Assembly: GCA_964612945.1 (NCBI GenBank)
Contig: CAZTFR010000006.1
Location: forward strand, 742 to 64,741
DNA: 64,000 nt
Direction: 5' to 3'
Origin: an uncultured Thermoplasmatales archaeon
Lineage (GTDB): Archaea; Thermoplasmatota; E2; DHVEG-1
A program made the position numbers and the translations under genes. This document shows positions 52,424-64,000 of the stretch, in pieces. The notes under the pieces are model-generated. The model did not search any database. It was not told where the DNA came from and saw nothing but the letters and a program-made list of their open reading frames with translations. How positions within the stretch are numbered: the first letter of the stretch is position 1; each line of letters starts with the position of its first letter.

Positions 52424-52434
52424 CCTATATTAAA
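52424..52434. repeat. Left copy of the border 11-mer CCTATATTAAA (att candidate or TATA box)
   Basis: Identical to 56553-56563. The reverse complement TTTAATATAGG is TATA-box-like and lies about 25-30 nt upstream of the ATG at 52402. Confidence 0.35.
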
Positions 52435-52726
52435 TTATGGCTGACCGAATGATAAAATAACAGAAGAAGGAGTCATAAGATATTTTTTTTATGATATATA
52501 AAACTAACCCCTAAATTATGTTACTGTGTGACAAGGTGTGAGGAGTCAGAATCTTTGGACAAGATTGAGGTGATATAATCACACTGCTTGACTCCCCAAT
52601 TAATGACAATTGATCATTAGGATTAAGGTTTTTCCCTTGTAAAGTAGGGAGTTTCACCTTACATATGGTGTTATAATGGATTCTTCAACAGGAAAAAAAG
52701 AAAAAAAGAGGGTTTTAGATGTGTGT

Positions 52727-53032
52727 TTATCGCTGTCTTAGCAGTAACAATGCGGAGATCGCGATTGCCAGGATGAAAATAGTCATCGCGACCAAGATAA
52801 GGTTTACAGCCGAGTCAAAACCACCCGTGACATTGATTAGCGTGTTGTTGCTTTGTGTCGTGAGGAAACTGCCGTTGGGCGTCGACGGACTGTCGAGCAA
52901 ATCATTCAATTCCGACACAACAATCCACATGACGAGCCCCATCACCAGCATGCCAGCAAACGCAATACCGATCATCAGAATGACACCGAGATCAATCATC
53001 CCTTCGACATTCTCGCAAAGCTTTCGCAACAT
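52727..53032 (-). CDS. Two-hydrophobic-helix small membrane protein, paralog B (spindle-virus capsid-like architecture)
   Basis: 101 aa: MLRKLCENVEGMIDLGVILMIGIAFAGMLVMGLVMWIVV - linker with NNT and NVT sequons - GFDSAVNLILVAMTIFILAIAISALLLLRQR. Its ATG lies 1 nt after the paralog A stop. The track start at 53083 would overlap paralog A. Confidence 0.6.
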   Translation of the reverse strand: MLRKLCENVEGMIDLGVILMIGIAFAGMLVMGLVMWIVVSELNDLLDSPSTPNGSFLTTQSNNTLINVTGGFDSAVNLILVAMTIFILAIAISALLLLRQR

Positions 53033-53033
53033 A

Positions 53034-53318
53034 TTACACCCGTCTGAGGAGCAACAATGCCGAGATTGCAAGGGCAAGAACAAAGATCGTGATAGCCACT
53101 AAGATAAGATTTACTGCCGAGTCAAAACCCGCGGTAACATTACCCATCGTATTGTTGGCCTGACCGAAATATCCCGTACCAGATAGCTCGGAACCCAAAT
53201 TGTCCCTGATCACCCAAATGATGAAACCGACAACAGCCATACCGACAAACGCAATACCGATCATCAGCACGACAGAGAGATCAATCACCGCACGGGCATC
53301 GTCTTTTAAAGATTTCAT
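53034..53318 (-). CDS. Two-hydrophobic-helix small membrane protein, paralog A (spindle-virus capsid-like architecture)
   Basis: 94 aa: MKSLKDDARAVIDLSVVLMIGIAFVGMAVVGFIIWVI - RDNLGSELSGTGYFGQANNTMGNVTAGFDS - AVNLILVAITIFVLALAISALLLLRRV. A perfect AGGAGG lies 9 nt upstream of the ATG at 53318. Confidence 0.65.
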   Translation of the reverse strand: MKSLKDDARAVIDLSVVLMIGIAFVGMAVVGFIIWVIRDNLGSELSGTGYFGQANNTMGNVTAGFDSAVNLILVAITIFVLALAISALLLLRRV

Positions 53319-53627
53319 TGAAAAAATCCTCCTATTATTTATTTCAGCCCCGGTAGAGCCGCATTTGTTTTCCCTCGAGTTTGACATATTTTGTACCAGC
53401 CTAACCCTGGGGGGCAAAATAAATAGGGAGGAGATATGCCAGGGAAATTCAGGACAAATCTCCCTGATCCATTATGTTACACACTGTTAATAGTGTATTC
53501 AATATATAACAGTTACTACAGAAATGTATATACATTATTTTGTAAACCTATTTATTTAACAGTTAATAATTATTCTATATTTAAAATATTACTCTATCCA
53601 ATGTATATGTATGGTATGAATGAGTTT

Positions 53628-53789
53628 TCAGTCAACATCTCTCGTTTTTGTGCCTGGTTTTTTTGGAAAAATCCTGCGTATTTTCGTTTGATGGCAACGT
53701 GGACAGCGTCCCGAGCCGGGATTTTCAGGAGTGATCCTTTTGCTGAAACGTTGGTTGCATATTTCGCACCAATACATTATTACTGGCAT
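53628..53789 (-). CDS. Zinc-ribbon miniprotein (53 aa), not in the ORF track
   Basis: My translation is MPVIMYWCEICNQRFSKRITPENPGSGRCPRCHQTKIRRIFPKKPGTKTRDVD, with a CxxC...CxxC pattern and a basic tail. GGTG lies 9 nt upstream. Confidence 0.5.
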   Translation of the reverse strand: MPVIMYWCEICNQRFSKRITPENPGSGRCPRCHQTKIRRIFPKKPGTKTRDVD

Positions 53790-53802
53790 CGTTTTGCACC
53801 AT

Positions 53803-53994
53803 TTATGAAACCGTATCTAAGATTCTTTCGACATCCGCTTTATCAAAAAAGCGGTCAGCATCATACCAATTACACGTTTTGCAATGCAGCCTGAAACCGA
53901 ATCTTTCACCAGCGTCATCGAATGCTGGACTTATCGGCCTGAATACAAGAAGGCCAGTGCACCGAGGACAAGCCTGATGGGACAGATCAGTCAA
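53803..53994 (-). CDS. Zinc-ribbon miniprotein (63 aa)
   Basis: CPRC...CKTC. The ATG overlaps the upstream stop as ATGA. Confidence 0.55.
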   Translation of the reverse strand: MTDLSHQACPRCTGLLVFRPISPAFDDAGERFGFRLHCKTCNWYDADRFFDKADVERILDTVS

Positions 53995-54401
53995 CCTGAG
54001 TCCTCCCTATTTTTCCAATATTCAAAGACTTGATCTACAGTAAAACCAGAAATTTTCCTTTTCTTTAATTGATACTGAACAATTTTTGAATCATCAATAT
54101 TTGGATTAGATATGCTTCGTCTTAACCCATGTCCTAAGTCAATCGTCTTATACCATTCTAAAAGTTTGTCAAGTTTTTCGTAATTTTTCTTTTCATCCGC
54201 ATCTAATCGTATATACATTTGTTCAAATTGTATATACAATTCTTTGTGTTTTTGAGCGGATTCTTTGAGCTCTTGTTTCGTTTTGGGGATTTTCACGTCA
54301 TAACCGGCATTCCATATTTCTGGATATTTGATACCTAATTCCTTACAAGTTTCCTTCTGTTGAGATTCAATCCAAAGGGAGATCATCACTTTAGTTGGCA
54401 A
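53991..54401 (-). CDS. Hypothetical protein of the island (136 aa)
   Basis: Helical and lysine-rich, with no motif recognised. TTG start at 54401 preceded by GGGGGGATTAGGA; alternative ATG at 54386. Confidence 0.45.
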   Translation of the reverse strand: MPTKVMISLWIESQQKETCKELGIKYPEIWNAGYDVKIPKTKQELKESAQKHKELYIQFEQMYIRLDADEKKNYEKLDKLLEWYKTIDLGHGLRRSISNPNIDDSKIVQYQLKKRKISGFTVDQVFEYWKNREDSG

Positions 54402-54490
54402 ATCCTAATCCCCCCCAAAAAGACAATACAAATTGGTGAAGTATGGAAAAAAACGTATATATATATACTATATATATACATAGGTCTATA

Positions 54491-54649
54491 CTATACACCT
54501 TTTCTCTCACCTCGCATCGCCGATTCAGATGTGATGTAGAGCCGATCGTTCGAACTCATTTTTTGGTAAATCAATCGAACATTCGATAAATTTTCAATAA
54601 AAGTAACTATTTCGTAAAAATCCCGTACATCGTCAAAACGAAAAATCAT
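54491..54649 (-). CDS. Possible 52-aa protein, not in the ORF track
   Basis: MIFRFDDVRDFYEIVTFIENLSNVRLIYQKMSSNDRLYITSESAMRGERKGV. Overlaps the upstream HTH ORF by 17 nt. Confidence 0.3.
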   Translation of the reverse strand: MIFRFDDVRDFYEIVTFIENLSNVRLIYQKMSSNDRLYITSESAMRGERKGV

Positions 54650-54785
54650 CGCTCCGGATTGTGTCATCCTTTTTTCCTTCCTTTAATTCTTGAATTTCAC
54701 GATCCACAAGTTGAATTGCTTGTTTCACAGTGAGTCCTGTCGCATTGAACAATTCTCTCGGCGTTTTGTATTGGAGAAAATTCAT
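54633..54785 (-). CDS. Possible 50-aa HTH (excisionase/AlpA-like) protein, not in the ORF track
   Basis: MNFLQYKTPRELFNATGLTVKQAIQLVDREIQELKEGKKDDTIRSDDFSF. TPRELFNATGLTVKQAIQLV looks like a helix-turn-helix. Confidence 0.35.
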   Translation of the reverse strand: MNFLQYKTPRELFNATGLTVKQAIQLVDREIQELKEGKKDDTIRSDDFSF

Positions 54786-54791
54786 ACAATA

Positions 54792-54938
54792 TCACTTAAC
54801 TCCCGAACGATCAAGTTCGTTCCTGATGCTTTGTTTTACAAAATCCGCCCTACTCACGAATCCTAATCGCTCTTTATTTTCGTCGATTTTTTGTACAAGA
54901 TTTCTTGGTAGACAAACACACAGGTACTTGCGATTCAT
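54792..54938 (-). CDS. Ribbon-helix-helix (CopG-like) protein of 48 aa, not in the ORF track
   Basis: MNRKYLCVCLPRNLVQKIDENKERLGFVSRADFVKQSIRNELDRSGVK has a beta-strand, helix, helix pattern. GGGGAG lies 8-9 nt upstream of the ATG. Confidence 0.55.
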   Translation of the reverse strand: MNRKYLCVCLPRNLVQKIDENKERLGFVSRADFVKQSIRNELDRSGVK

Positions 54939-54961
54939 ACAAAAACTCCCCACATAAACAT

Positions 54962-55057
54962 ACGATACTTGTATCGTTCACGTATATTTAAAACTTTGCG
55001 ATATGCGTATCGTAACTTATTTTAACCCGTTAGCAATATAGGTATTGTAGGCGATAC
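54962..55057. promoter_or_regulatory. Divergent control region with three CGATAC/GTATCG palindromic operators and a TATA element
   Basis: ACGATAC-TT-GTATCGT (54962-54977), TATATTTAAAA (54983-54993), CGATAT-GC-GTATCG (54999-55012) and GTATTG-TAGG-CGATAC (55042-55057, abutting the ATG at 55059). Confidence 0.5.
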
Positions 55058-55058
55058 A

Positions 55059-55427
55059 ATGGCATCTACGAAACCCAGGGGGAAATATCAAGGCGTTTCG
55101 CTACCGAAAGAATTCTTACGCGAAGTACAAAGAATTGTGTTGAACGATAATAGGTACAAATCAATTGCTGCCTACATCCAGGAGGCTATTAGGGAAAAAA
55201 TGAAAAAGGATCGCTTCTGGGAAACAGATAAACCCCCAGAAAACGAATCAGATTTTAAACGGTTTTCAGATGCTTATTTTCCCGATATGCCCGAAGAAAC
55301 TCGAAAATATTTTGCTGCAAAGCTAATTCTCGATAAACCGTTGATAATAATGGATGAGACTGAAATTAAAAAAATGCTGCAAAAAACAATCAAAGCGGCT
55401 ATAAAAAAAAATAGAGATTTATTTTGA
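55059..55427 (+). CDS. Ribbon-helix-helix domain protein (122 aa)
   Basis: KYQGVSLPKEFLREVQRIVLNDNRYKSIAAYIQEAIREKM forms an RHH N-domain. The 3' end overlaps the integrase 3' end convergently by 9 nt. Confidence 0.6.
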   Translation: MASTKPRGKYQGVSLPKEFLREVQRIVLNDNRYKSIAAYIQEAIREKMKKDRFWETDKPPENESDFKRFSDAYFPDMPEETRKYFAAKLILDKPLIIMDETEIKKMLQKTIKAAIKKNRDLF

Positions 55428-56489
55428 ACCGTTTTTTATCATTCCTTGATACATCGTAAGAAGATGCTCCTTGTCATTTAATAATCGTTCCATTTGTTGC
55501 ATTTTATCTTCGAGTTTGTGAATTCTTTGTTCTTTCTCGGTCATTTCTTTATTGATTTCCTGTAGGTCTGGTGACTGCTCAATAACTGCTATATTGCGAA
55601 CGTATTTGTTGTATTCCTCTGCAAGTTTTCGCTCAGGATATTTTCTGTACGTGCTAAGGTAGCCGCTATGTCCCATTAGATGCTCTGCAAGGTCAGCATT
55701 ACCGAAATAGGTTCGGAAGTATTTTCGGAAACAATGAAAATGTAATTTCATTCTTCCGGTGGTTGGATCTCGTTCAGTATATCCGGCTTTGGACATAGCA
55801 CGATAAAGCGATTCTCTAAGCGTTTTTTGATCATAAGGAAAAACTCTGATGTCGTCCTTTTTTTTGGTGTGTAGGTTGCCGCTGCGTCTCCTTGATGTCT
55901 CGTAATAGGTATCTCTTACTTGCAGCCATGCATTCAATGCTTTTTTTGCCTCATTTGAGATGAAAGTAGTTCGTTTTTTCTTTCGTCCTTTTACGATTTC
56001 TGCTCGAAGATTTATCCGCACCGGATTTTCATCTAAATGTATATCATTCGGCTGCAGTAGCATGAGTTCTTCAATCCTCATACCACTGGATGTACCCATG
56101 AGAACAACAGCACGCCCTCTCACGTCAAGATGCTGCAATATCTTTGCGATGTCCTCTGGTTCAGGTATAAAGTCCTCTGAGACCGGCTCTGCACCTTTTA
56201 ACCGTAAGGATATAGTATCCCAGAGGTCAAGCTCTTTTATTTTTTTATCATGATAGCAGAGAAATTGTTTTACCGCACTTACTGTCGTCTGCGTTGATTT
56301 CAATGGTCTGCCTCGTAGGGAATTATAAAATCTGATGATGTCGGCTTGATAGTCTCGGTCAGGTTGAAAATATGTCCTTATATCAGCATTGATGATCTGG
56401 AAATATTTCCGAATATGATGTCGATAGAGTTTCCGGGTGTTTTTATTTGATACCAATCTATTGGTGAGATATTCCTCAATCTTGTCCAT
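55419..56489 (-). CDS. Tyrosine recombinase / phage-type integrase
   Basis: Catalytic set in order: SSGMRIEEL (Arg), VKGRKKKRT (Lys), HFHCFRKYF (His-x-x-Arg), LMGHS (His) and YLSTYRKY (Tyr). C-terminal coiled-coil tail. First ATG is at 56489; the track start at 56498 is a TTG. Confidence 0.85.
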   Translation of the reverse strand: MDKIEEYLTNRLVSNKNTRKLYRHHIRKYFQIINADIRTYFQPDRDYQADIIRFYNSLRGRPLKSTQTTVSAVKQFLCYHDKKIKELDLWDTISLRLKGAEPVSEDFIPEPEDIAKILQHLDVRGRAVVLMGTSSGMRIEELMLLQPNDIHLDENPVRINLRAEIVKGRKKKRTTFISNEAKKALNAWLQVRDTYYETSRRRSGNLHTKKKDDIRVFPYDQKTLRESLYRAMSKAGYTERDPTTGRMKLHFHCFRKYFRTYFGNADLAEHLMGHSGYLSTYRKYPERKLAEEYNKYVRNIAVIEQSPDLQEINKEMTEKEQRIHKLEDKMQQMERLLNDKEHLLTMYQGMIKNGSK

Positions 56490-56552
56490 AATTATCAATA
56501 AATCTAATGCAAAAATGGTATAAATAGTTTTTCTTGGTCAATCCATAATTAA

Positions 56553-56563
56553 CCTATATTAAA
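56553..56563. repeat. Right copy of the border 11-mer CCTATATTAAA (att candidate or TATA box)
   Basis: Overlaps the agmatinase stop codon. On the minus strand it lies about 64 nt upstream of the integrase ATG. Confidence 0.35.
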
Positions 56564-57431
56564 CTACGCCTTTTCTTCTTATATCGCTTACAAAGCGTCG
56601 AATAAGTTTTGCAGCAAGAAGAGCGGTTTGGCCATGATCATAGGGTGGACAGACTTCGGTAAGATCAAATCCCATGCAGCGGGGGGCAAAGCTGTCTAAG
56701 AAAGTAAGAAGGTCAAAAGAGGTAATACCAAAAGGTTCAGGGGTACTTGTAGCGGGTGCAAAGCTGGGATCAAGAACATCAATATCTACTGAGAGATATA
56801 TTTTTTTGTCAGAAACGTGTTGTAATATATCTTTAATGACGGTATTTATTCCTTGTTTTTGTATATGAAATGCATCTTTAAAGTAGAGACCTGCTTTTTT
56901 TGCCTCAATCAGTTCTTGTTTTTCAGCAGATCGAACACCTATAACAAAAAGGTTATTTATCCCTACATGGTCACTGATTCTTCTATTTACACAAGCGTGA
57001 TTGTATGCTTGTTGTTCATAGGTATTGCGGAAATCAAGATGCGCATCGCAGACGATAACTGCGGAATTTTTTGGAAAAGCTTGAATTATTCCTGGTGTAA
57101 CGGAGTGTTCTCCCCCGAGGGCGATGGGTATTTTTTTCTCGGTAAGTATTTTCTTTGTAAAAGATTTTGTGTGCTGAATCATTTTATTGACCGGCATTGT
57201 TTCTACAGGGATATTTCCATAGTCATGAATGCGTTGACTGTCGAGATTTTTTCCTGTTTGGAAATCATAGGTTTCAAAATTCCAACTTGCTTGTCTGATT
57301 GCATTAGGTGCGGTGGCAGCTCCTTTTCGAAACGATGATGTTTTATCATAGGGAACGCCAAAAATGATATAGTCTGCTGATGTGAAATCTGCTTCTGCAT
57401 CTGCAAAATAGGGGGGGAAATCCAGTGTCAT
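56559..57431 (-). CDS. speB: Agmatinase (arginase family)
   Basis: Mn-binding motifs GGEHSVT, CDAHLDF and SVDIDVLDP. Adjacent to aIF5A, as in many archaea. Confidence 0.88.
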   Translation of the reverse strand: MTLDFPPYFADAEADFTSADYIIFGVPYDKTSSFRKGAATAPNAIRQASWNFETYDFQTGKNLDSQRIHDYGNIPVETMPVNKMIQHTKSFTKKILTEKKIPIALGGEHSVTPGIIQAFPKNSAVIVCDAHLDFRNTYEQQAYNHACVNRRISDHVGINNLFVIGVRSAEKQELIEAKKAGLYFKDAFHIQKQGINTVIKDILQHVSDKKIYLSVDIDVLDPSFAPATSTPEPFGITSFDLLTFLDSFAPRCMGFDLTEVCPPYDHGQTALLAAKLIRRFVSDIRRKGVV

Positions 57432-61228: not shown

Positions 61229-61235
61229 AACTGCT

Positions 61236-61309
61236 GCCCGCATGAGGTAGTTTGGATATCCTAGAGCCCTGCGGAGGCTCTTACTCGGGTTCGAATCCCG
61301 ATGCGGGCA
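61236..61309 (+). tRNA. tRNA-Arg (anticodon GCG)
   Basis: Folded by hand. Acceptor stem GCCCGCA/TGCGGGC (7 bp), anticodon stem GAGCC/GGCTC with loop CTGCGGA, T arm TCGGG-TTCGAAT-CCCGA, discriminator A. No encoded CCA and no intron. Confidence 0.9.
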
Positions 61310-61405
61310 TGCCTAATATTTGCACAGTTTATTCATAAGGAGAAAACCATTGTTTTTTTACCATTAAATTATTGTTCAAATCTTGTCCACTATTTTTTTT
61401 TAAAA

Positions 61406-61789
61406 TTATGGAACAATTAATTTTACAATATCCATTTTTTTATTTGTGTTAAATAATCTGTGCATCTCTTTAATTCTCCCGGCTTTGCCTTGTAAGACAA
61501 ATATTTCAAGGCATTTTTCTTTTTCAAAATGGTTATGTAACTGTGTTTTAGTGATATCTTTAAAATCATGTTTAATCTCTGAAACAGCATTTTCTGAATC
61601 GTGATGATGAATAACAAGAAGTATGGAATTTATTTCTCCATATAATTTTTCAGAATCTTTACTTTCTGAAATCAAAAGTCTAATGCCGGCTCTTATAACT
61701 TCTGATCTACCTGAGTATCCATGATCATTTTGTATCTTCTCAATATCTTTTAGAATATTATCATTTAATGATATACTTATAATCGTCAT
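61406..61789 (-). CDS. nikR: NikR-like metal-responsive regulator (RHH plus ACT-like metal-binding domain)
   Basis: MTIISISLNDNILKDIEKI...YSGRSEVIRAGIR forms the RHH domain. C-domain has VIHHHD...HNHFEKEKCLEIFVLQG, a His/Cys ligand pattern. Confidence 0.7.
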   Translation of the reverse strand: MTIISISLNDNILKDIEKIQNDHGYSGRSEVIRAGIRLLISESKDSEKLYGEINSILLVIHHHDSENAVSEIKHDFKDITKTQLHNHFEKEKCLEIFVLQGKAGRIKEMHRLFNTNKKMDIVKLIVP

Positions 61790-61893
61790 GAAATACAATA
61801 ATTAATAACATGTTTATATACTTGACCATAAAAGTTAATAACAAATTATATAAATATTAATAATATCTGTAGATTCAATGGAGAGAAAATAGT

Positions 61894-62808
61894 ATGATGA
61901 ATAAAAAAATATTGCTTTCATGTATAATAATATGTTTAGGCATGTTGACTGTTTCGCTAACCGGTTGTGTTGATAATTCAGATGAAAAAATAGGTGTTTT
62001 AGTAACTATTGTACCACAGGTCGAAATGGTAGAATTCATTGCTGGAGAATATGTTGATGTCACTATTATGGTTCCACCGGGTGAAAGTCCTCATTCTTTT
62101 GAACCAACACCAGATCAGATGAAAAAAGTAGCCAAAGCAACAGCATATTTCAAGGTTGGTTCAGGTGTTGAATTTGAAGATGCTCATATGGATACAATAT
62201 TTGAGCAAAATTCAGATTTACAAGTGTTTGACGGCTCAGAAGACATATCTGTTATTTCTTTTGATCAACATTATGGAAACGAAGATTATCAAGAAGATGG
62301 TGAACATGATCATGAAGGAAATGATCCCCATATATGGACATCACCAGAAAATTTCAAAAAAATGGCAGAGGTAGTTTATACTGGCCTTGTTGAAATAGAT
62401 CCTGATCATCAAGAGGAATATTATGCAAACTATCAAGTATACATTTCTAAACTTGAAAACCTTCATACTAATGTTAGTAATTTATTAAATCCATATGAGG
62501 AGGAATCTTTTATGGTATATCATCCTGCGTGGGGTTATTTTGGTGATACTTATAATCTAAAAATGATTGCGATTGAAGATGAAGGAAAACAACCTGGTAC
62601 AGCTGGAATTGCTGCGATAATAGATCAAGCCAAAGAGGAAAATATAACAGTTATTTTTGTAGCACCACAATTTGATACATCAAGTGCAGAAACAATTGCT
62701 GATGAAATCGATGGAAATGTTGTTTTTGCAAATCCTTTGATGACAAATTATGAAGAAACAATTACAAAACTTGCAGAAGATATTGTAACTGGATTTGAAA
62801 ATAGTTAA
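61894..62808 (+). CDS. Metal ABC transporter substrate-binding lipoprotein (ZnuA/TroA-like)
   Basis: Lipobox LTGC, ligand contexts ESPHSFEP and DPHIW, and an acidic/His-rich loop HYGNEDYQEDGEHDHEGNDPH typical of zinc-specific members. Confidence 0.8.
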   Translation: MMNKKILLSCIIICLGMLTVSLTGCVDNSDEKIGVLVTIVPQVEMVEFIAGEYVDVTIMVPPGESPHSFEPTPDQMKKVAKATAYFKVGSGVEFEDAHMDTIFEQNSDLQVFDGSEDISVISFDQHYGNEDYQEDGEHDHEGNDPHIWTSPENFKKMAEVVYTGLVEIDPDHQEEYYANYQVYISKLENLHTNVSNLLNPYEEESFMVYHPAWGYFGDTYNLKMIAIEDEGKQPGTAGIAAIIDQAKEENITVIFVAPQFDTSSAETIADEIDGNVVFANPLMTNYEETITKLAEDIVTGFENS

Positions 62809-62874
62809 ACACAATAATTAATTATATTAATAATCTATTTTCATATAAAAAATGTGAGGTGCCATTTTTTTTAA

Positions 62875-63660
62875 ATGAATAAAAAAGTTGCAATTGAGTT
62901 AAAAAATATATCTGCCGGATATGGAAATGATATTGTAATTGAAAATATAACTTGTAATATTTATGATAAAGATTTCTTTGGAATAATTGGTCCTAATGGT
63001 GGAGGAAAATCTACTCTTTTAAAAATAATACTTGGTTTACTAAACCCATTTAAAGGATATATAAGGATCTATGGAAAACCACCTAAAATTGGACGTAAAA
63101 ATATCGGTTATGTTCCACAATATTCAGAGTATGATAAACATTATCCAATATCTGTGTGGGATGTTGTGTTAATGGGTCGTAGAAGTATACGAGGTTTTCA
63201 TCCTTTGTATTCCTCAGATGATAAAAAAGCAACAGTTGAAACTTTAAAAAAAGTAAGTATGTTAGAATATAAGAAACGGCATATTAGTGAACTTTCTGGT
63301 GGGCAAAGACAGAGGGTTTTTATTGCCCGTGCTCTTGTATCAAATCCTAAAATTCTTCTTCTTGATGAACCAACAGCAAGTATTGATAAAGATTTACAGA
63401 TAAATTTTTATAATCTTTTAAAGGAATTGAATAAATCTGTTACAATTCTTCTTGTCACTCATGACATAGGTGTAATTTCATCATATGTTAATCGTGTCGC
63501 TTGTCTTAATCATTTTATGTTTACTCATGATGATGAAAAAATGATAAGTAAAGAAATGCTTGAGAAAACATATAGTTGCCCGGTAGACTTGATTGCTCAT
63601 GGTGTGCCTCATAGAGTTCTTGATGAGCATAAAAAAAAGGATAAAAAAGGTGTAAAATAG
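62875..63660 (+). CDS. Metal ABC transporter ATP-binding protein (ZnuC-like)
   Basis: Walker A GPNGGGKST, signature LSGGQRQR, Walker B LLLDEP. Confidence 0.88.
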   Translation: MNKKVAIELKNISAGYGNDIVIENITCNIYDKDFFGIIGPNGGGKSTLLKIILGLLNPFKGYIRIYGKPPKIGRKNIGYVPQYSEYDKHYPISVWDVVLMGRRSIRGFHPLYSSDDKKATVETLKKVSMLEYKKRHISELSGGQRQRVFIARALVSNPKILLLDEPTASIDKDLQINFYNLLKELNKSVTILLVTHDIGVISSYVNRVACLNHFMFTHDDEKMISKEMLEKTYSCPVDLIAHGVPHRVLDEHKKKDKKGVK

Positions 63661-63682
63661 TTTGGTTGCTGATATTTTTGAG

Positions 63683-64000
63683 ATGTTTCAGTATCCTTTT
63701 GTTCAAAGGATGTTTATAGCAGGTCTGCTGGCAAGTTTTGCCTGTGGAATTATTGGAACTTATGTTGTTGTTAAACGTGTTGTTTTTATTAGTGGTGGTA
63801 TTGCTCATACTACTTTTGGGGGTATCGGATTTGCTTATTATCTTCAGTTTTTGGGTATAGTCTTTATTGACCCTTTGGTTGGTGCTTTGATTTTTGCACT
63901 TATTGCCGCACTTATTATGGGTCTGCCTTTTATCCGAACTCGTCTGCGTGAGGATTCAACAATTGGTATTTTATGGGTTGTTGGTATGGCTCTTGGAGTG
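63683..64000 (+). CDS. Metal ABC transporter permease (ZnuB-like), truncated by the right window edge
   Basis: Not in the ORF track (no stop in the window). MFQYPFVQRMFIAGLLASFACGIIGTYVVVKRVVFISGGIAHTTFGG is a typical ABC-3 permease N-terminus. It may start at the TTG at 63662. Confidence 0.75.
   Translation, partial: MFQYPFVQRMFIAGLLASFACGIIGTYVVVKRVVFISGGIAHTTFGGIGFAYYLQFLGIVFIDPLVGALIFALIAALIMGLPFIRTRLREDSTIGILWVVGMALGV

Follow-up and report, generated by a model that had tools for sequence, protein, structure and literature searches.

A 4.1-kb integrated element with a capsid-like gene pair in a Thermoplasmatales archaeon: a candidate satellite of an undescribed spindle-type virus group

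We analysed a 64,000-nt (64-kb) stretch of DNA from an uncultured Thermoplasmatales archaeon (assembly GCA_964612945.1, contig CAZTFR010000006.1, positions 742 to 64,741), hereafter the window. Between the agmatinase gene speB and a gene encoding an FKBP-like membrane protein, it carries a compact block of 4,129 bp (52435–56563, with one repeat copy counted) that is very probably a site-specifically integrated element. Taken as a whole, the evidence leads us to favour, with somewhat more confidence than doubt, an integrative, capsid-gene-bearing and satellite-like element of an undescribed group of spindle-type (or related pleomorphic) viruses. An initial annotation, made from the letters of the window, had delimited the block by the FKBP-like start codon (52402) and the speB stop and had listed its genes, and this inventory and the positions of the open reading frames (ORFs) agree with ours (Table 1).

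The ends of the block provide the first evidence for integration. The 11-mer CCTATATTAAA lies in the same orientation at both edges, with its right copy over the speB stop codon, as initially described, and these are the only two copies in the window, where the number expected by chance is about 0.04 and none of 100 shuffled sequences had two matches. Similarity between the two edges extends beyond the 11-mer to 13 of 14 and 16 of 19 positions. When the ends of the island are joined, they form GGTCAATCCATAATTAA-CCTATA-TTAAATTATGGCTGACC, that is, two imperfect inverted 17-nt arms around a 6-nt centre. The core sites of tyrosine recombinases consist of inverted recombinase-binding arms flanking a short crossover region, and the end-joined near-palindrome thus looks as expected of an integrase core site. 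Its palindrome score is 42, compared with 14 at each of the two integrated junctions and 13 at the reconstructed host attachment site (attB), and a score of 42 is reached by the top 0.75% of the windows of the same length in the sequence. The near-palindrome emerges solely on joining sequences that lie 4.1 kb apart.

The second line of evidence is an empty site. In a Thermoplasmatota relative (L030), speB is followed after 39 nt by the FKBP-like gene, with no island in between. The order of genes at this locus is the same as in the window (CGI-121, Hel308, ORFs of 103 and 86 aa, eIF5A, speB, the FKBP-like membrane protein and a convergent RecJ-like gene); the FKBP-like proteins of the two genomes are homologous (33% identity, E = 1e-59), and the C-termini of the RecJ-like proteins are 61% identical over 57 aa. 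This is the arrangement that the initial annotation had proposed to look for, and its reading of the repeats as attL/attR-like is supported by the empty site together with the end-joined palindrome. It is because of these two results in combination that we consider site-specific integration very probable. Virtual removal of the island gives speB-TAA-TATAGG-21 nt-ATG, a compact yet plausible spacer compared with the 39 nt of L030. Two other relatives (L031 and L032) were uninformative about the site, as different genes follow their speB, and a scan of genome contigs with speB gave no match.

The initial annotation had also cautioned that the repeats could be two promoters rather than attachment (att) sites. 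For the left copy this was half right. Read on the minus strand, it ends 21 nt before the FKBP-like start codon; TTAATATA stands 23 nt ahead of this codon both here and in L030, and the stretch between the TATA box and the ATG is conserved between the two genomes as well (attcaacacNgtcATG). Because both the spacing and the intervening sequence are conserved in L030, the left repeat is the FKBP-like gene's own TATA box. The two functions do not compete, as the same copy would also serve as the crossover core. The right copy, for its part, is not needed as a promoter of the integrase gene (int), since a separate conserved promoter, GAAAAACTATTTATA, is located some 30 nt ahead of the int start codon and aligns with the GGAAAAnTT-TAAATA box of six related integrase genes. 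The possibility that the block is native DNA flanked by two similar archaeal promoters draws on the left copy, which truly is the FKBP-like TATA box, and on the host-like composition of the block. It is largely refuted, and we regard it as very improbable, given that the whole block is missing from the syntenic position in L030, that the right copy is not the int promoter, that two independent promoters would not be expected to yield the end-joined palindrome, and that the genes of the block have relatives on circular and virus-like contigs.

Composition does not help to delimit the island. The spot G+C counts of the initial annotation (28/60 and 29/60 inside, 21/60 in the adjacent host gene) are exact, but those from the island sample only two genes, TM1 and TM2, with 47.2% G+C, and the contrast is lost when the entire island (38.4%) is compared with the window (38.7%). 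Its tetranucleotide distance is ordinary, with 37 of 120 windows equally far or farther. The compositional argument for an island was therefore dropped.

The position of the core may explain why the site is tolerated. Since the core coincides with the TATA box and the stop codon and is duplicated, the insertion leaves the FKBP-like promoter and the speB stop codon intact and damages neither host gene; tolerance of the site would follow from the survival of both signals. A crossover core made of an upstream stop codon and a downstream TATA box would thus offer a harmless insertion route into an intergenic spacer of 27–39 nt.

The only enzyme recognised in the island is its integrase, which matches Pfam PF00589 (Phage_integrase) with 50.9 bits (cut-off 27.1, E = 2e-13) and the PHROG integrase family at 2e-22. 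The full R-K-HxxR-H-Y catalytic set that had been noticed initially is conserved across the family: among 38 members, R138, K167, H252, R255, H274 and Y281 either do not vary or show at least 90% conservation. Homologues are few (44 in 5.8 billion proteins) and nearly all metagenomic, the nearest named one being a protein from a Thermoplasmatales metagenome-assembled genome (MAG) with 36% identity, and there was no match in PLSDB. Exact-protein look-ups returned no record for either speB or the integrase. Clustering with chromosomal Xer recombinases would have spoken for a host gene. The integrase scored 58.9 bits against the XerA model NCBIfam NF040815, far under the cut-off of 220, and is not a chromosomal XerA orthologue; the match to XerA in the PDB had E = 2.7e-4 and was confined to the N-terminal half. 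The att core lies outside the uninterrupted int ORF, a pNOB8-type geometry, and not inside a gene split by integration as in the SSV type.

Related loci point to a mobile backbone. A recurring module consists of int, an opposite-strand ribbon-helix-helix (RHH) gene overlapping the int 3' end, and a CopG-type RHH gene; it is whole in L028 and partial in L009, L029, L023, L018 and L006. Homologues of RHH122, which has a weak NikR-type RHH match, occupy the same place beside related integrases in L009, L028 and L029, and those of RHH53 adjoin related integrases in L028, L023, L018 and L006. In the window the two genes are divergent, and the 105-nt promoter region between them contains two operator-like palindromes 36 nt apart, so that regulators and palindromes together may form a two-regulator switch. 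A 10.1-kb contig with a same-family integrase (L013, Ga0272442_10012735; 39% identity) has a 117-bp terminal overlap and is therefore a circle of 10.0 kb, probably a related integrative element in its episomal state; it also encodes proteins of 497 and 980 aa of no known function. As L013 is circular and other loci of the family adjoin host genes, the integrase family belongs to integrative episomes.

Some smaller sites were found around the att core and in the island. The motif TTGGAyTTyAATGA occurs about 60–75 nt before the integrase ATG in relatives (L017, 56–69; L019, 6922–6935; L020, 1039–1052; L026, 154–167) and aligns with the att core of the window (TAGTTTAATATAGG, 56553–56566). This alignment suggests a core-site position shared across the family; no second copy of the motif was found in those related loci. 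A 17-nt direct repeat around a related integrase element in L021 was dropped as a second example because the reconstructed circular-form site (attP) was not palindromic. The exact 15-mer TGGACAAGATTGAGG, an inverted copy of the first int codons, occurs solely at the two places given in Table 1 (0.23 matches expected at two or fewer mismatches), and in the circular form its arms would flank the att core at distances of 64 and 121 nt. An accessory site for the recombinase or an excisionase is one possibility, chance another. The palindrome TGTATATACA, with one mismatch allowed, has four of its six window matches in the island (53525–53534, 54208–54217, 54229–54238 and 54471–54480), two of them as neighbouring copies within orf136; these sites may be regulator-binding or origin-like.

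The proposed link with viruses comes from the tandem genes TM2 and TM1. A profile built from both proteins gave 629 matches of about 90–110 aa, with no Pfam domain and no meaningful name. Members occur nearly always as tandem pairs, and many matches have a second copy on the same contig. Its members begin with a charged stretch and a first hydrophobic helix; a variable loop that closes with the conserved N-[IV]-T-x-G-F-D leads to a second helix of almost invariant sequence (AVNLILVAITIFILAIAISALLMLRGR), and the C-terminus is basic. The AlphaFold2 (AF2) model of TM2 is a helical hairpin (helices 14–44 and 51–92, pLDDT 75.8), so the two helices and N-x-S/T loop of spindle-virus capsid proteins are found here in the model and in the conserved N-[IV]-T before GFD. 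Both genes keep every family-invariant residue. Compared with their closest relatives, dN/dS is 0.07–0.24 (TM2 0.07, TM1 0.19), with synonymous sites near saturation, and on this ground the genes are under purifying selection and have been kept functional.

The genomes in which this pair is found are of two kinds. The closest copies (85% identical for TM2 and 66% for TM1) are on a 4,733-bp contig (L033; JGI 3300017813, Ga0188953_10572) with a 99-bp terminal overlap, which makes it a circle of about 4.63 kb; besides a Prim-Pol and a few small ORFs, it carries a 460-aa tyrosine recombinase from a different family, and it looks like an SRCE-type mini-replicon outside haloarchaea. The pair is also found in contigs of 9–39 kb (L034, L035, L038 and L045) and in fragments (L039–L044), where it sits within long one-directional arrays of ORFs without a Pfam match. 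Large proteins are encoded there as well: L038 has proteins of 658, 778 and 724 aa that contain FN3-like repeats or are predicted to be anchored in a membrane by their C-termini, besides several multi-transmembrane miniproteins, and L045 has a protein with a beta-helix/NosD domain and a length of at least 917 aa. L035 and L045 encode, together with the pair, a 'DnaA-like' AAA+ ATPase (phrog_5484; 1e-17 and 4e-14) that matches B251 of SSV1 itself (BLASTP 2e-13, tblastn 1e-10); the island of the window has no such ATPase. A hydrophobic alpha-helical capsid protein and an AAA+ ATPase form the signature of spindle viruses (bioRxiv 10.1101/2025.02.15.638363), and several of these viruses have two capsid-protein copies, with N-x-S/T sequons being typical (PMC10541130; PMC12451623). 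In view of the architecture of the family, its tandem duplication and its co-occurrence with the B251-type ATPase, we think it rather probable that the TM pair works like the capsid proteins of spindle viruses.

Two observations concern these genomes themselves. L038 (WJKZ01000017.1), a 14-kb contig and the only one with the TM family among GTDB representative genomes, is binned in a MAG of a Candidatus Omnitrophota bacterium and is likely a mis-binned archaeal virus contig. In L045 (9214–10428) and L046 (3603–4817), a DDE_Tnp_1 transposase gene separates the early small-ORF block from the module usually found after the capsid-like pair, and looks like an insertion sequence in a viral genome.

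A structural role for the pair has a competitor, namely that the island is a cryptic integrative plasmid-like element whose membrane proteins serve in superinfection exclusion, as a channel or toxin, in vesicle formation or as a pilin. We judge this improbable. It is in keeping with the lack of detectable homology between the TM family and known capsid proteins, and with the absence of the family from IMG/VR. Two further results also point that way. The best Foldseek match in the PDB, although not significant, was 8dfu, the Ced conjugation pilin of Aeropyrum, which is also a helical hairpin (E = 2.7, TM-score 0.47–0.52), and TM1, but not TM2, gave a weak match to the MscL channel. We rejected both candidates: a Ced/VirB2-type conjugative pilin has no significant structural match and is accompanied by no transfer ATPase or channel genes in the island or related loci, with no VirB4/HerA/CedB-type genes nearby, and the MscL match (PF01741) stayed at 17.6 bits against a gathering threshold of 27.4. 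The larger contigs further speak for virus-like morphogenesis, with their ORF arrays, proteins of about 660–920 aa and fusellovirus-type ATPase.

None of the loci sharing the integrase family of the window carries the TM pair, which is why we see the island as a mosaic in which a capsid-like cassette has been combined with an integrase backbone; in addition, there are no matches between the island integrase module and the large genomes. The initial annotation had recognised no replication, packaging or partition gene, and neither did our searches of the island ORFs in Pfam, PHROGs and NCBIfam, which also gave no plasmid-type replication protein (rolling-circle Rep or primase-helicase). It had left the choice between a defective element, a satellite and an element with unrecognised functions; of the first two, a satellite is now the better supported, since the tandem hydrophobic proteins connect the island with genomes that resemble spindle viruses. 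What remains is a small genome (4.1 kb) with what would be an incomplete morphogenetic module, comprising the putative capsid-like pair and no ATPase. As no replicase, ATPase or large adsorption protein could be recognised among the ORFs, a satellite is the simplest model, and we advance this particular step tentatively, at slightly less than even chances.

A decayed provirus would account for part of the same picture. Here a larger spindle-type provirus would have lost its ATPase, replication and adsorption genes by internal deletion, in accordance with the existence of full-size pair-bearing relatives (15–39 kb, with ATPase, integrase and large structural proteins), the lack of a recognisable replication gene in the island, and a host-like composition that fits long residence. 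The state of the island argues otherwise, since the two att copies are free of mismatches, the end-joined attP has kept its palindrome, and all ORFs are intact and tightly packed, including capsid-like genes with all invariant residues and the low dN/dS given above. Moreover, the circular L033, at 4.6 kb, indicates that a small size is natural for carriers of the pair, and the integrase module of the island is of a different backbone from that of the large genomes. We therefore consider decay unlikely. We find it much less credible still that the island and L033 are complete, self-sufficient minimal agents, the DNA of which is wrapped and exported without a helper in a tiny spindle- or vesicle-like particle, two membrane or capsid proteins, an integrase and a few DNA-binding proteins being all that this would take. 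If they were, they would to our knowledge be the smallest double-stranded DNA virus-like replicators of archaea, under the 5.3 kb of the clavavirus APBV1, and integrative too.

Several results weigh against an integrated, satellite-like element with capsid genes. The relative with the empty site is distant (speB 58% and FKBP-like protein 33% identical); even the best speB homologues are just 57–60% identical, the named ones coming from Thermoplasmatales or Thermoplasmatota MAGs, although the genes on either side of the island do mark the host as an uncultured member of Thermoplasmatota. A 27-mer spanning the attP junction had no match in IMG/VR, so no excised form was found. The host-like composition fits a long-resident or well-adapted element and lends no independent support. 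Comparisons of the TM family with known capsid proteins were negative: hhalign gave probabilities of 2.9% with His1 VP21, 1.1% with SSV1 VP1 and 10% with a profile of three sequences (VP1/VP3/VP21), and Foldseek against the PDB and BFVD returned nothing significant, with no match below E = 0.85. By sequence, the PDB yielded a PsbY transmembrane artefact only, and tblastn against a phage and virus collection spurious matches only (E = 3). Membership in a known capsid family is thus not supported by sequence or profile comparison, and, as the family is missing from IMG/VR, its viral nature is read from gene context. Finally, there is no helper virus in the window, and four island ORFs have no known function, one of which could be an unrecognised replication protein.

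With these points in mind, we propose the following course of events for a satellite-like element. In the circular form, both inverted arms would be bound by the integrase, which would then exchange strands within the AT-rich core TTTAATATAGG, the host copy of which lies where the speB stop meets the FKBP-like TATA box; cleavage is predicted to occur with a 6–8-bp stagger within CCTATATT. Once integrated, the element would replicate passively with the host, with RHH53, RHH122 and the palindromic operators acting as a switch between maintenance and induction. The TM2-TM1 operon would be expressed from its own AT-rich upstream region, with GGAGG before TM2 and the T-rich tract after TM1. After excision, the element would supply its own capsid subunits and borrow the missing functions from an L035/L045-type helper virus infecting the same cell.

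Table 1. Features of the island and its edges (positions in the window)
Feature	Position	Strand	Remarks
Left (FKBP-side) att core copy	52424–52434		Exact 11-mer; minus strand reads TTTAATATAGG, TATA box of the FKBP-like gene
attP inner arm, left element end	52435–52446		TTATGGCTGACC; inverted match to 56536–56552 on joining
15-nt perfect inverted copy of the first int codons	52556–52570 vs 56474–56488		TGGACAAGATTGAGG; left arm non-coding, 121 nt inside the left end
T-rich tract	52691–52716	-	Just past the TM1 stop; putative archaeal terminator, from sequence
TM1	52727–53032	-	101 aa; TM2 paralogue, 56% identity; second capsid-like protein
TM2	53034–53318	-	94 aa; two-helix hydrophobic protein, NxT sequon in loop; first capsid-like protein; GGAGG before ATG
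Zn53	53628–53789	-	FmdB-type zinc-ribbon miniprotein; TIGR02605 31.5 bits vs 31.3; Pfam Zn_ribbon_8, E = 6e-7
Zn63	53803–53994	-	CxxC...CxxC zinc-ribbon miniprotein, from translation; no family above threshold
orf136	53991–54401 (probable start 54386)	-	Orphan family
orf58	54491–54667	-	Putative ORF; no family
orf50	54633–54785	-	Homologue in a single locus, L024 (related integrase locus); no Pfam or PHROG family
RHH53	54792–54953	-	CopG-family RHH regulator; Pfam RHH_1, 25.2 bits vs cut-off 20.5
Two operator-like palindromes, ACGATAC-NN-GTATCGT	54962–55013		54962–54977 perfect (ACGATACTTGTATCGT); 54998–55013, 2 mismatches
RHH122	55059–55427	+	RHH-type regulator; divergent from RHH53; 3' end overlaps int 3' end
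int	55419–56489	-	Tyrosine integrase, 356 aa; Pfam PF00589, PHROG; intact, start 64 nt from att core
TATA-like box of the integrase promoter	56519–56526	-	TATTTATA, about 30 nt before ATG
attP inner arm, right element end	56536–56552		GGTCAATCCATAATTAA; pairs with left arm on joining
Right (speB-side) att core copy	56553–56563		Exact 11-mer; holds the speB stop codon (56559–56561)

The remaining small ORFs are poorly connected. No homologue of orf58, orf136, Zn63 or Zn53 was present in any of the loci fetched. For orf136, eight homologues were found among 1.84 billion representative proteins and there was no match in Pfam or the PDB; its single-sequence AF2 model was poor (pLDDT 48.7) and not usable for a structure search. 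Rfam gave no match on the island. Elsewhere in the window, G+C falls to 25–33% at 61235–63700, beside a tRNA-Arg(GCG) (61235–61310). The genes there, named from their translations, encode a NikR-like RHH regulator, a metal-binding protein of ZnuA type and an ABC ATPase resembling ZnuC, and the region looks to be a metal-uptake operon of the ordinary kind whose G+C is unusually low.

By its physical integration, the island links a large unannotated family (629 matches; absent from Pfam, PHROGs and IMG/VR) and its virus-like genomes to Thermoplasmatota. It also suggests that capsid-gene-bearing mini-satellites, so far proposed for halophiles only, exist in sediment archaea and can be integrative. 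The defined attP/attB pair and the 356-aa integrase might become a genetic tool for a poorly tractable phylum.

Among known systems, the fusellovirus satellites pSSVi and pSSVx of Sulfolobus/Saccharolobus resemble the island in size (about 5–6 kb), spread in the particles of a helper virus and have CopG-type RHH regulators, which are found in the island too. pSSVi also has an integrase and inserts into the chromosome of its host; this enzyme is of the SSV type, and insertion, which takes place in a tRNA gene, splits the integrase gene. In contrast, the island integrase stays intact and its target is an intergenic TATA box and stop codon. Both satellites have a pRN-type Prim-Pol replicase and no capsid protein, and pSSVx has an ATPase (bioRxiv 10.1101/2025.02.15.638363). 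The island shares with pNOB8-type integrases and cryptic archaeal elements an undisrupted int beside the att site, short direct repeats and a small, mostly ORFan content, but its integrase family is small (44 homologues), its target is no tRNA gene and its cargo is tied to a virus group. For the TM pair, the counterparts are VP1/VP3 of SSV1 and VP21 of His1; sequence and profile comparisons detect no similarity to them, and no structural match reaches significance. The pair and these proteins are nevertheless alike in length (about 70–100 aa), in having two hydrophobic helices, an N-x-S/T loop and a basic C-terminus, in being often paired paralogues, and in the presence of a B251-type ATPase in the same genomes, which for the TM family are L035 and L045.

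The closest parallel is provided by the SRCEs of haloarchaeal spindle viruses. Circular elements of 2.7–9 kb with a capsid protein and/or an AAA+ ATPase have been described as putative satellites of larger spindle-shaped viruses (bioRxiv 10.1101/2025.02.15.638363). The element in the window differs in being integrated by a tyrosine integrase and in having no recognisable plasmid-type replication protein; its host belongs to Thermoplasmatota and is not a halophile, and its capsid-like proteins are without detectable homology to known capsid proteins. Like the SRCEs, it is very small and carries only part of the spindle-virus signature module, and L033, with the pair and a Prim-Pol, fits them closely.

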